A stretch of DNA of 32,000 bases from Glaesserella sp. (lineage in GTDB: Bacteria; Pseudomonadota; Gammaproteobacteria; Enterobacterales; Pasteurellaceae): positions 10,865-42,864 of the forward strand of contig NZ_JBGXYA010000048.1 of the NCBI RefSeq assembly GCF_041814905.1, written 5' to 3'. Position numbers: made by a program. Positions 24,001-27,000 of this stretch are shown here, in pieces; position 1 is the first letter of the stretch, and each line of letters begins with the position of its first letter.

Positions 24001-27000
24001 TTCGACAACGGTGTCAGCCGCTGATGCCTTTGTGATTGCCGTGCCGACGCCGCTAACCGCCGAACATCTGCTCGACTTAACTTTTGTTAAAGCTGCGGTG
24101 AAAGCAATTGCGCCGTTTTTGCAGAAAGGAAATTTAGTGGTATTGGAATCAACCTCACCGGTCGGTACCACAGAACAGGTTGCCGAGTGGTTACAGCAAC
24201 TACGACAAGATCTTATTTTGCCGATAAAAAATGCCCAAAATGCCGATATTTATATCGCATATTGCCCCGAACGGGTATTGCCGGGGAAAATAATGACGGA
24301 AATGTTTGAAAATGATCGTGTTATCGGCGGTCTTTCAGAAAAAAGTACTCAACAAGCGGTCGATTTATATCAAATTTTTGTAAAAGGAAAATGTATTAAA
24401 ACAGATACGCGAACCGCAGAAATGTGTAAACTGACAGAAAATAGTTTTCGAGATGTAAATATTGCTTTTGCGAATGAACTTTCTGTTATTTGTGATGAAT
24501 TAAATATCAATGTTTGGGAACTTATTTCATTGGCAAATTGTCATCCTCGGGTAAATATTTTACAACCCGGCGTGGGTGTCGGCGGACATTGTATTGCGGT
24601 TGATCCTTGGTTCATTATTGCGAAGTCGCCCAAATCGGCGAATTTAATTCGTACGGCAAGAGAAGTAAACGATGCCAAACCGTATTGGGTGGTTGATAAA
24701 GTGAAATTGGCTGTCGCAAATTATGCAATGGAATACGATATCAAGGTCGGTGACGTCAATATTGCTTGTTTCGGGCTTACATTTAAAGCGGATTCAGATG
24801 ATCTGCGAGGAAGCCCGGCAGTAAAGATTATTCGAGAATTAGCAACATGGCATAAAGGCAATATATTTATCGTAGAGCCGAATATTCAGTCGTTACCGGA
24901 TAAATTTACAAAAAATATTTCATTGGTCGGTTTTGATTATGCGTTAAAACAAGCTAATATTATAGTGCTTCTTGTGGATCACAAGGTTTTTAAAGGAATA
25001 AATTTAAGGAGTATTTCATCACAATGGATAGTGGATACAAATGGTATTTGGATAAATAGTTGAGGAAAAATATGAAGGCACATTATTGGATGCTTTGCTG
25101 CGGCTTATTAAGTTGCGCATTGGGTCATGCCGTGCAGTCTAATGAACAATATCATCGGGAATTTCAGTGGGCATCAAAAGCAGAATGTAAAACTGCAAAT
25201 GCAGCGTTTGAACCTAATATAGCAAGTCCTGAGTATCTCGCATTACCGGTTTCTAAAGTCAAAGCCGTAATGGGAATGCCGAGTGGGAAAAAAGTTCGCG
25301 TGGAAGGTGATTTCGTCCCTCAAAAAGAGGGACGCGGAGAATTAAGTGATTCAAGCGGTCAGATCGGGCTTAAATTTCGCAAAGAATTTGGTTGCAATAA
25401 AAATAGTGTGGGTGCGCCGAATGAAAATAAAGGCAAAACAGAATATTTCGGTACCGTTCGTCATGAGCGGGGTAGACCAAGTTATATTGAGCTTGATCAC
25501 ATTCAATATGAATATCCTTTTGAAAATTTCTTGAATACCTCTTCACTTGCCGTTGCGCAATATGAGAATGGTTATGTTTCCTTTGACGAATTGCGACGTC
25601 TTGCCGAGGACGGCTTTGAACCGGCACAAACGCGTTTAGCGATGGTTTATATTATCGGTCGTTATGAAAGTATTAATAAAGAAGTCGTATCGTTTGATAA
25701 ACCGGATTTAAATAAGGCGGTCGGATTACTACAAAAAGCGGCTGTCCAGCATGCGCCGGCGAGAAAAATCTTAGCATGGGCTTATGACGGCGGTTACGGC
25801 GGTTTAGCGAAAGACAGAAAAAAAGCGTTAGAGTTATATCACCAAGACGATGATGTAGATTGGTCTACGTTTTACAACAAGGAAGCGCAAGCGAAAAGTT
25901 TATGGTTTGAGAAGAAAGATCTTAAACGTGCATTAGCGATGTATTTAGAGCTGAACAAACAGAAAGTTGATGCCGGTTTGGTCGAAATCAGTGAGATTTA
26001 TTTTCAATTAAAAAATTATGAGCGAGCTAAATTTTATTTGGACAGAGCGCTTTCCGAAGGCCGGGAATCTTATGTGTTAGGTGTGATGTATTTGGAGGGT
26101 TTGGGTGTTCGTCAGGACATTAACCGAGGATTGCAACTGTTAAATAATAATTTGAGCCCGCCAGCAAATTTGTATCTCGCAGACATTTATAGTAAAGGTA
26201 AATGGGTTAATAAAGATATTCAAAAAGCCAAATCCTATTACTGGGAAGTTATTCAGCAAACGGAACGTTTGGCGGACTCTTATGCGGAAGATAAATTGTG
26301 GCATGAGCAAGCCATGGAAAGATTGAAACTATTAGAATGAAAATAGTGATAACCAAAAATCAATGGGAATCCGATTTTTTTGATCGTACAATCGGGCAAT
26401 TGGATTTTGTCGAATCAAACCAGCTATCAGATTTAGGCGCGTTAATCGCGCCTTTTGATTTAGTGCAAGCCAAAGTGCCGGCAACCGCTTTAGCACAACG
26501 GGATTATTTGCAGCAACATGGTTTTCACTGTGTTGACGTAGAAGTGCGGTTTCAGCTGAATTTTGCAAAATATTTGCAAAATCCGACCGCTTGTTGTGTG
26601 GCAAATGTGTCGGATATTCCTCAATTAGAAGCATTGTTTGGTCATGCTTTTCCTCATAGCCGTTTTCGTTCACCTTGGTTTTCTTCGTTAGATAATCAAC
26701 GTTTTTACCAAACTTGGATTCGCAATGCCGTACTAGGGCAATTTGATGATATCTGTTTTGTATGGAAAGATACACAAGGTTCTATTCAAGGTGGCATATC
26801 GGTGCGTTTAAATGACGATTCGGCGAATATCGGTCTGCTTACAGTTTCCCCCGAATATCAACGGCAAGGCGTAGCGAAGCAGCTTATCCAAGCAGCAATT
26901 TATTGGACTGCACAACAAAAAATGACTCGATTTGATGTTGTGACTCAATTAAGCAATCTTTCAGCTATTCGATTATATCAATCGTTAGATATGAAAATGG

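Follow-up and report, generated by a model that had tools for sequence, protein, structure and literature searches.

The window analyzed here is a 32,000-nucleotide stretch of DNA from Glaesserella sp. (NCBI RefSeq assembly GCF_041814905.1, contig NZ_JBGXYA010000048.1, positions 10,865 to 42,864 of the forward strand), and the gene in question, at 25072–26340, encodes a predicted exported 422-aa protein and lies between wecC and wecD in a gene cluster for enterobacterial common antigen (ECA). The identical database protein, WP_373778446.1 from Glaesserella sp., carries only the NCBI name "tetratricopeptide repeat protein". The flanking gene order is wecA, a Wzz-like gene without a Pfam match, wecB, wecC, the gene, wecD, wecE, wecF, a 157-aa lipoprotein gene, wzyE, and wecG. 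A preliminary description had proposed the gene as an undescribed functional module of the ECA pathway. The comparisons below favor, at a probability of about one half, a horizontally spread periplasmic adaptor whose function is independent of ECA. The features of the gene and of the adjoining wecC are as follows.

23802–23855, forward strand: native wecC start (ATG at 23802) and premature stop (TAG at 23853–23855), with a deletion junction between 23843 and 23844.
23882–25063, forward strand: remaining wecC frame, 393 codons from a TTG, without the Rossmann β1-αA elements.
25062–25066, forward strand: Shine-Dalgarno motif GAGGA, read from the sequence, 5 nt before the ATG at 25072.
25072–26340, forward strand: gene for the predicted exported 422-aa protein, combining a BOF-like OB fold with Sel1 repeats.
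25072–25131, forward strand: predicted signal peptide, residues 1–20, identified by eye.
25132–25248, forward strand: short helical N-terminal segment with the invariant Cys39, the helices being modeled with low confidence.
25249–25509, forward strand: predicted OB-fold domain of BOF/YgiW type, residues about 60–146, from an AlphaFold2 (AF2) model and Foldseek.
25582–26334, forward strand: Sel1-like/tetratricopeptide repeat (TPR)-like solenoid of approximately seven helical hairpins, residues about 171–421, from Pfam and AF2.
26337–26340, forward strand: ATGA overlap of the gene stop (TGA at 26338–26340) with the wecD start (ATG at 26337–26339).

The junctions of the gene are exactly as first described. 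The reading frame, the overlap of GAGGA with the stop of the wecC frame (TGA at 25061–25063), and the overlap of the stop with the wecD start are all exact in the sequence, leaving no space for a promoter or terminator of its own. In the promoter and terminator scan, promoters were not in excess and nothing specific was located near the gene. An integron cassette was rejected, as the ATGA overlap leaves an attC site without room. The proposed coupling into the operon holds in one part only: the overlapping junctions are real, but for this strain a true coupling of its translation to that of wecC is open to doubt, because ribosomes starting at the native wecC ATG (23802) stop at 23853–23855. 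The cause is a 10-nt deletion (ATCGGTTTAC in relatives), which removes the residues IGLP of the GLGYIGLP NAD-binding motif, as established by three-frame translation and by aligning the 5′ end of wecC in two Pasteurellaceae loci (L006 and L031). In the remaining frame, the Pfam UDPG_MGDP_dh_N match begins at profile position 28. An assembly error was considered as the origin of the frameshift; the same 10-nt deletion in an independent Logan assembly (L001) argues against it, with the reads possibly being the same. In the copy from the NCBI metagenome-assembled genome (MAG; L002), a further 1-nt deletion lies downstream within wecC.

The gene is real and under purifying selection. Compared with a 73%-identical homologue, dN/dS is 0.09 at a dS of approximately 1.8; compared with an approximately 97%-identical strain (L002), 8 of 8 nucleotide differences are synonymous; and intact frames are present in 36 cluster members from three bacterial families. 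A decaying passenger or a mis-called frame without function might be suspected from the broken wecC alongside and from the very small family. However, such a reading is already contradicted by the selection on the gene, as well as by the intact frames, the good Shine-Dalgarno site, and the recognizable domains, and it retains hardly any probability.

The first 20 residues (MKAHYWMLCCGLLSCALGHA) look like a type I signal peptide, with predicted cleavage between GHA and VQ. As judged by eye, the N-termini of all four family clusters are hydrophobic and carry a small-x-small cleavage site, in agreement with the export proposed at the outset. An alternative lipoprotein reading from the motif LLSC was discarded, as the lipobox is not conserved: P0002 has LLCC, and in P0005 and P0006 the signal peptide is free of Cys. 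Both Cys39, in the helical segment, and Cys108 are invariant across the four clusters, and a periplasmic disulfide between them is therefore likely.

The N-terminal AF2 model (residues 20–186, from 4 sequences, with moderate confidence) contains a five-stranded OB fold with a core predicted local distance difference test (pLDDT) of 70–88. It replaced the N-terminus of a full-length model from 2 sequences, which was unusable there (pLDDT <30). When the N-terminal model was searched against the PDB with Foldseek, the top matches were all OB folds, and E. coli YgiW (1NNX) was at rank 4, with an E-value of 2e-4, a target-normalised TM score of 0.68, and a root-mean-square deviation of 3.1 Å over 90 columns. 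The family profile matched 1NNX at E 0.68 among 177,635 PDB sequences. Furthermore, sub-threshold matches to Pfam BOF (PF04076, cut-off 25.8 bits) were given by P0005 (16.7 bits) and P0015 (15.9 bits); in the Moraxellaceae-type members these matches (E 0.0017–0.014) cover residues 74–121 and profile positions 22–70, at the homologous position. A YgiW/BOF fold had been named beforehand with low confidence, and the weak BOF scores therefore weigh more than the library-wide E-values imply. Together with the fit of the model to 1NNX they strengthen that idea, so that the domain appears BOF-like, short of a proven BOF member. A match of the family profile against the PDB to β-strands of GFP-like fluorescent proteins (E 0.04; 25336–25515, residues 88–148, also listed as about 107–167), with the pattern CNKNS..GK..F.TVRH....S..L.DH.QQ, was attributed to chance in view of the residues it covers and of the fold search, which gave OB folds only.

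The known BOF proteins YgiW/VisP and YdeI/OmdA (PF04076) are small stress proteins with a periplasmic OB fold, known from Enterobacterales, Vibrio, and Pasteurellaceae, and the likeness consists of a five-stranded OB barrel behind a signal peptide, here a predicted one, with the motif V-x-L-x-G-x-F...F-x-D-x-(S/T)-G-x-I-x-(L/V)-x-F at the equivalent place. However, they are single-domain proteins of about 110–130 aa, whereas the present protein possesses an extra N-terminal helical segment, a Cys pair, and a fused 250-aa Sel1 solenoid, and a qseBC-type two-component system is not adjacent to its gene.

The C-terminal region confirms the Sel1 repeats first noticed. Pfam Sel1 (PF08238) is matched in three stretches with 48.2 bits against a cut-off of 30.7 (E 1.3e-12), besides one TPR-like unit (TPR_8/TPR_2), and all family members scanned pass the Sel1 threshold. 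In the full-length AF2 model, residues 171–421 form approximately 14 paired helices with a pLDDT of 55–93. The nearest solved structures to the repeats are Helicobacter HcpC (1OUV, E 2.4e-8), the Oxalobacter formigenes Sel1 proteins 6ORK and 6ONW, and Hrd3. With the Sel1-like repeat (SLR) proteins HcpC, 6ORK, 6ONW, EnhC/LpnE, Vibrio MotX, and Sinorhizobium ExoR, the protein shares a predicted export, α/α repeats of 36–44 residues, and the Sel1 signature. The similarity is at the level of the repeats only (E about 1e-8), however; none of these SLR proteins has an N-terminal OB domain, and the cysteine pairs of Hcp type are absent from the repeats here. The sole NCBIfam match, MotX with 13 bits against a cut-off of 330, is meaningless. 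As far as the libraries searched show, there is no described example of an OB fold combined with Sel1 repeats.

The family is very small. A word-indexed search of 5.8 billion proteins returned the protein itself and one 73% relative only, and when the N-terminal domain was run exhaustively with HMMER against 1.84 billion cluster representatives (50% identity), three full-length clusters emerged, namely the protein's own, which includes the 73% relative, P0005 (438 aa), and P0006 (431 aa). A fourth match (P0007) concerns a short repeat motif only, and the JGI metagenomes, scanned with the family alignment, yielded no match. Beyond Glaesserella, the full-length homologues (37–39% identity) are located in an Acinetobacter-like gene string and in Neisseriaceae units flanked by DNA uptake sequences (DUS).

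In the Moraxellaceae cluster (P0005, 21 members with 96% identity), the homologue occupies the third place in the order mrcB (PBP1B), enoyl-CoA hydratase, homologue, dehydrogenase, with gaps of 15 and 9 nt (L094). The neighboring PBP1B is approximately 60% identical to that of Acinetobacter and therefore indicates a Moraxellaceae-like host. In a relative without the gene (L092), the hydratase (73% identity) and the dehydrogenase (78% identity) are adjacent, 17 nt apart. The tight embedding at wecC–wecD, formerly taken as a sign of ECA membership, thus recurs in an unrelated operon of catabolic type, and because of this it is a habit of the gene and no sign of an ECA role. In the Neisseriaceae cluster (P0006), an ldh/mdh-like gene adjoins the homologue (L085 and L091). 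Each of these two short contigs contains three overlapping AG-kingDUS/AG-simDUS dyads (TTCAGGCAGCCTGAA), whose hairpins flank the gene; this copy looks like an independent DUS-terminated unit. Published work attributes such overlapping kingDUS/simDUS dyads to Simonsiella muelleri, Alysiella crassa, and Kingella negevensis (PMC3630211, PMC7371117). No wec neighbors are present beside the Moraxellaceae-type or Neisseriaceae-type copies in the contexts retrieved, and co-occurrence with a wec locus is restricted to the two Glaesserella clusters. To our knowledge, the Acinetobacter-like and Simonsiella/Alysiella-like host taxa are without ECA.

The proximity of the Moraxellaceae-type homologue to mrcB, from which it lies two genes downstream on the same strand, recalls the TPR/SLR adaptors of peptidoglycan enzymes, such as LpoP (encoded beside ponB in Pseudomonas), NlpI, LbcA, and EnhC-Slt, which dock cell-wall enzymes. 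However, these adaptors are mostly lipoproteins, none has an OB domain, and a sequence relationship to the gene is absent. The proximity itself arises because the gene is inserted at the hydratase–dehydrogenase junction, and this junction is present without it in L092.

The exported repeat protein and its distribution bear on two further explanations. Host-interacting Sel1 proteins are known in Helicobacter (Hcp), Legionella (LpnE and EnhC), and E. coli (EsiB), and a Sel1-repeat protein of mucosal commensals or pathogens that is secreted or exposed at the surface and attaches to a glycan or protein of the host would be consistent with the signal peptide, with HcpC as the closest match to the repeat region, with the occurrence in host-associated-type taxa only (Glaesserella, Simonsiella/Alysiella-like, and Acinetobacter-like), and with a patchy distribution that suggests horizontal transfer. 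We regard this as unlikely: secretion-system genes were not found nearby in any context, the likeness to HcpC is of the generic kind found between such repeats, periplasmic proteins are the known carriers of BOF domains, and the host-associated habitat of the samples is itself assumed.

Sel1-repeat immunity proteins act against Pseudomonas PldA/PldB and Klebsiella VgrG4, and the same exported repeats would suit an orphan immunity protein, which would neutralize in the periplasm an envelope toxin of neighboring cells, such as a phospholipase of a type VI secretion system or a peptidoglycan hydrolase. Its sporadic spread across families of naturally competent bacteria, for which a common habitat is plausible, is consistent with this, as is its status as a single gene without functional neighbors under strong purifying selection, and a Sel1 immunity protein has been described (PMC7108748). 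On the other hand, effector, VgrG, Hcp, and toxin genes were not found in the contexts retrieved, in which the Neisseriaceae-type contigs are short; an OB domain is without precedent in such immunity proteins; and the 96% identity within the Moraxellaceae cluster is high for a gene in an arms race. The chance of this explanation appears decidedly low.

The ECA proposal was compared with 80 ECA loci, retrieved with WecE from GTDB species genomes. They are mostly from Enterobacterales and include Actinobacillus genomosp. 2, Testudinibacter, and a Glaesserella MAG, whose contig (L012) contains wecD/wecE-like genes only and no full cluster. A homologue was found in 0 of the 80 loci (tblastn, E≤1e-5), with no match outside the lineage of the window itself. 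The wecC–wecD junction varies naturally: the two genes are adjacent in 38 of 80 loci and split by about 2 kb (rffG-rffH) in 40 of 80. In the Pasteurellaceae loci L006 and L031, both of the adjacent type, wecC abuts wecD with a gap of 30–44 nt. With homologues lying in unrelated operons of taxa generally held not to make ECA, the co-occurrence with wec genes on which the preliminary description made its proposal depend fails, and an ECA scaffold is not supported.

The analogy with periplasmic scaffolds of other polysaccharide systems, drawn in the preliminary description, fares no better. AlgK and the TPR regions of BcsC, PgaA, and PelB are likewise periplasmic helical repeats encoded within a polysaccharide operon. 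However, AlgK is an outer-membrane lipoprotein that partners AlgE, and the TPRs of BcsC, PgaA, and PelB are fused to an outer-membrane β-barrel, whereas a conserved lipobox, a barrel, and a porin gene in the cluster are all absent here. In addition, ECA follows a Wzx/Wzy pathway and not a synthase-type pathway as in AlgK-like systems, and, unlike such scaffolds, homologues of the gene lie outside any polysaccharide locus.

The 73% relative (WP_373767142.1, from Glaesserella sp. MAGs; context GLAESSERELLA) defines a sister lineage, in which the order is hemL, wecA, a wzz-like gene, a spacer of approximately 700 bp with 31% GC, the gene, wecF, the gene for the PM1805 lipoprotein, wzyE, and wecG. 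In this locus wecB, wecC, wecD, and wecE are gone, and the gene is intact between a decayed wecC stub and wecF. The DNA homology between the window and the sister locus starts 147 nt 5′ of the ATG, within the wecC 3′ end of the window, and includes the motif TTGAGGA, which is thus preserved beside the decayed wecC; its 3′ limit coincides with the end of the gene's stop codon (26340). Since the homology reaches into the wecC 3′ end, the insertion at this end is older than the split of the lineages. From the same limits, wecB-wecC and wecD-wecE were lost later from the sister locus, with the gene retained between both deletions. Occurrence at the same site in two Glaesserella lineages points to one ancestral, vertically inherited insertion. 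In the same sister MAG, wecD/wecE-like genes are found on another contig, in a glycosyltransferase cluster (GT25, GT9) of lipooligosaccharide (LOS) type, an arrangement comparable to the dispersed wec genes of G. parasuis SH0165 (PMC3096633).

Both lineages share further peculiarities of the cluster. At the wecE–wecF junction of the window (28195–28207) the genes are 11 nt apart, whereas approximately 1.3 kb, the position of wzxE, the gene for the ECA flippase, lies there in 75 of 80 loci. A tblastn search with Testudinibacter WzxE found no wzxE in the cluster or the 32-kb window, and wzxE is likewise absent from the sister cluster. The 157-aa lipoprotein gene, between wecF and wzyE in the region 29366–29945, is a second lineage-specific insertion. 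It belongs to the PM1805 family by the precomputed Pfam assignment (PF27255), the local Pfam copy giving no match, and it is present in both Glaesserella lineages and absent from the ECA loci L006 and L031. Behind it, a strong hairpin with a 14-bp stem and a T-run (29864–29894) is followed by a promoter-like site (29916–29945), which could together split the operon before wzyE-wecG. In the window, the gene at the wzzE position (21853–22671) encodes only 272 aa with no Pfam Wzz match and a C-terminal transmembrane segment; its product is 44% identical to the Actinobacillus and 35% identical to the Testudinibacter counterpart, and its 3′ end overlaps the listed wecB reading frame (GTG at 22646).

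What the two lineages share still fits an ECA role limited to Glaesserella, in which a recruited periplasmic scaffold would assist assembly or display of an ECA-like polymer, with the Wzz-like protein, WzyE, and the co-acquired PM1805 lipoprotein as proposed partners and perhaps a tie to the loss of wzxE. The gene is embedded in the operon without its own promoter or terminator, it has kept its relative place amid wecA, wzz-like, wecF, wzyE, and wecG in two lineages separated by a dS of about 1.8, and both clusters have gained the lipoprotein gene and are devoid of wzxE. However, the two occurrences amount to a single inherited event, none of the 80 other ECA loci, including two from Pasteurellaceae, carries the gene, and homologues built in the same way are found in unrelated operons of bacteria generally held to be without ECA. 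Moreover, the gene is intact where wecB, wecC, wecD, and wecE have left the locus, and the AlgK/AlgE type of organization, with its lipobox and outer-membrane export partner, is missing. A lineage-specific ECA role is therefore judged quite unlikely. More specifically, and with a very slim chance, the OB-Sel1 protein and the PM1805 lipoprotein of the Glaesserella lineage without wzxE in the cluster would form a new periplasmic module that holds an ECA-like polymer or hands it over, for example to LOS, phosphoglyceride, or the surface, while the Moraxellaceae and Neisseriaceae homologues would handle a different glycan linked to undecaprenyl phosphate. If true, an ECA pathway would for the first time have a periplasmic accessory factor.

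The explanation preferred here, at the probability of about one half given above, is the horizontally spread periplasmic adaptor. Its function would be independent of ECA, because the gene stayed intact, at the dN/dS of 0.09, where four wec genes left the sister locus, and because the window itself has a frameshifted wecC and no wzxE. The product would be a soluble exported protein, most likely periplasmic, in which a disulfide-braced OB domain is joined to a Sel1 solenoid of approximately seven units. As a bivalent adaptor, it would hold an envelope glycan or oligosaccharide with the OB domain, by analogy with VisP, and would bind a partner protein, for example a cell-wall or envelope enzyme, with the Sel1 solenoid. 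According to PMC5636140, which cites Moreira 2013, the Salmonella BOF protein VisP binds peptidoglycan sugars and modulates an envelope enzyme. As an accessory gene, it would move horizontally among naturally transformable Pasteurellaceae, Neisseriaceae, and Moraxellaceae, which presumably share a mucosal habitat, and would land promoterless at junctions inside existing operons, where it would be expressed by read-through. One such landing, at the wecC–wecD junction in the ancestor of the two Glaesserella lineages, would make its place in the ECA operon historical. Localization, ligand, partner, and physiological role are deduced in this scheme, whereas the reality of the gene, its domain make-up, its status as an insertion, its distribution, the purifying selection, and its retention amid wec decay are observed.

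Several points weigh against the adaptor explanation. The pLDDT of the N-terminal AF2 model is only 63 overall, and the window protein itself gives no match to Pfam BOF at E≤1. The adaptor mechanism is drawn from analogy, and the habitat of the source samples, on which the idea of a shared habitat depends, is presumed. In both Glaesserella lineages, wecA, wzz-like, wecF, wzyE, and wecG are kept around the gene and the PM1805-family lipoprotein gene, and retention of the gene amid these assembly genes would also fit a lineage-specific ECA role. Furthermore, wecB, wecC, and wzxE may be located elsewhere in these genomes, in which case ECA may still be made.

Elsewhere in the window, two adjacent lipoprotein genes on the reverse strand (3873–4919) encode a 127-aa protein (lipobox LTGC, no Pfam match) and a 213-aa Sel1-repeat lipoprotein (lipobox VSAC, Pfam Sel1 E 8e-24). 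The latter (3873–4514, reverse strand) was considered as a paralogue and dismissed, the similarity being at the repeat level only (25% over 109 aa). The remainder of positions 1–20513 is housekeeping by its domains: an M16 peptidase C-terminus, aldehyde dehydrogenase, phosphoglucomutase, an NAGPA-type phosphodiester glycosidase, DUF5358, acetyl-CoA synthetase, PEBP, and hemL, together with frdABCD (11647–15013), a comEA-like helix-hairpin-helix protein (15166–15735), and menH/menD-like genes for an α/β hydrolase and a thiamine pyrophosphate enzyme (16063–18587). The 32-kb window contains 15 uptake signal sequences of Apl type (ACAAGCGGT), and is therefore consistent with Pasteurellaceae of the Actinobacillus/Glaesserella group.

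An ECA role, if true, would offer a handle on the unsolved periplasmic steps of ECA biogenesis, but the evidence points the opposite way. The case is a cautionary one, in which tight embedding and start/stop overlaps alone do not imply a common function. In Glaesserella, the locus documents the erosion and dispersal of the ECA cluster. Meanwhile, the gene represents an uncharacterized and very rare family in which an apparently YgiW-type OB fold is fused to a Sel1 solenoid, both parts being of well-known kinds, and this family is common to three families of naturally competent, host-associated bacteria, where it is found repeatedly, without a promoter, at junctions within unrelated operons.

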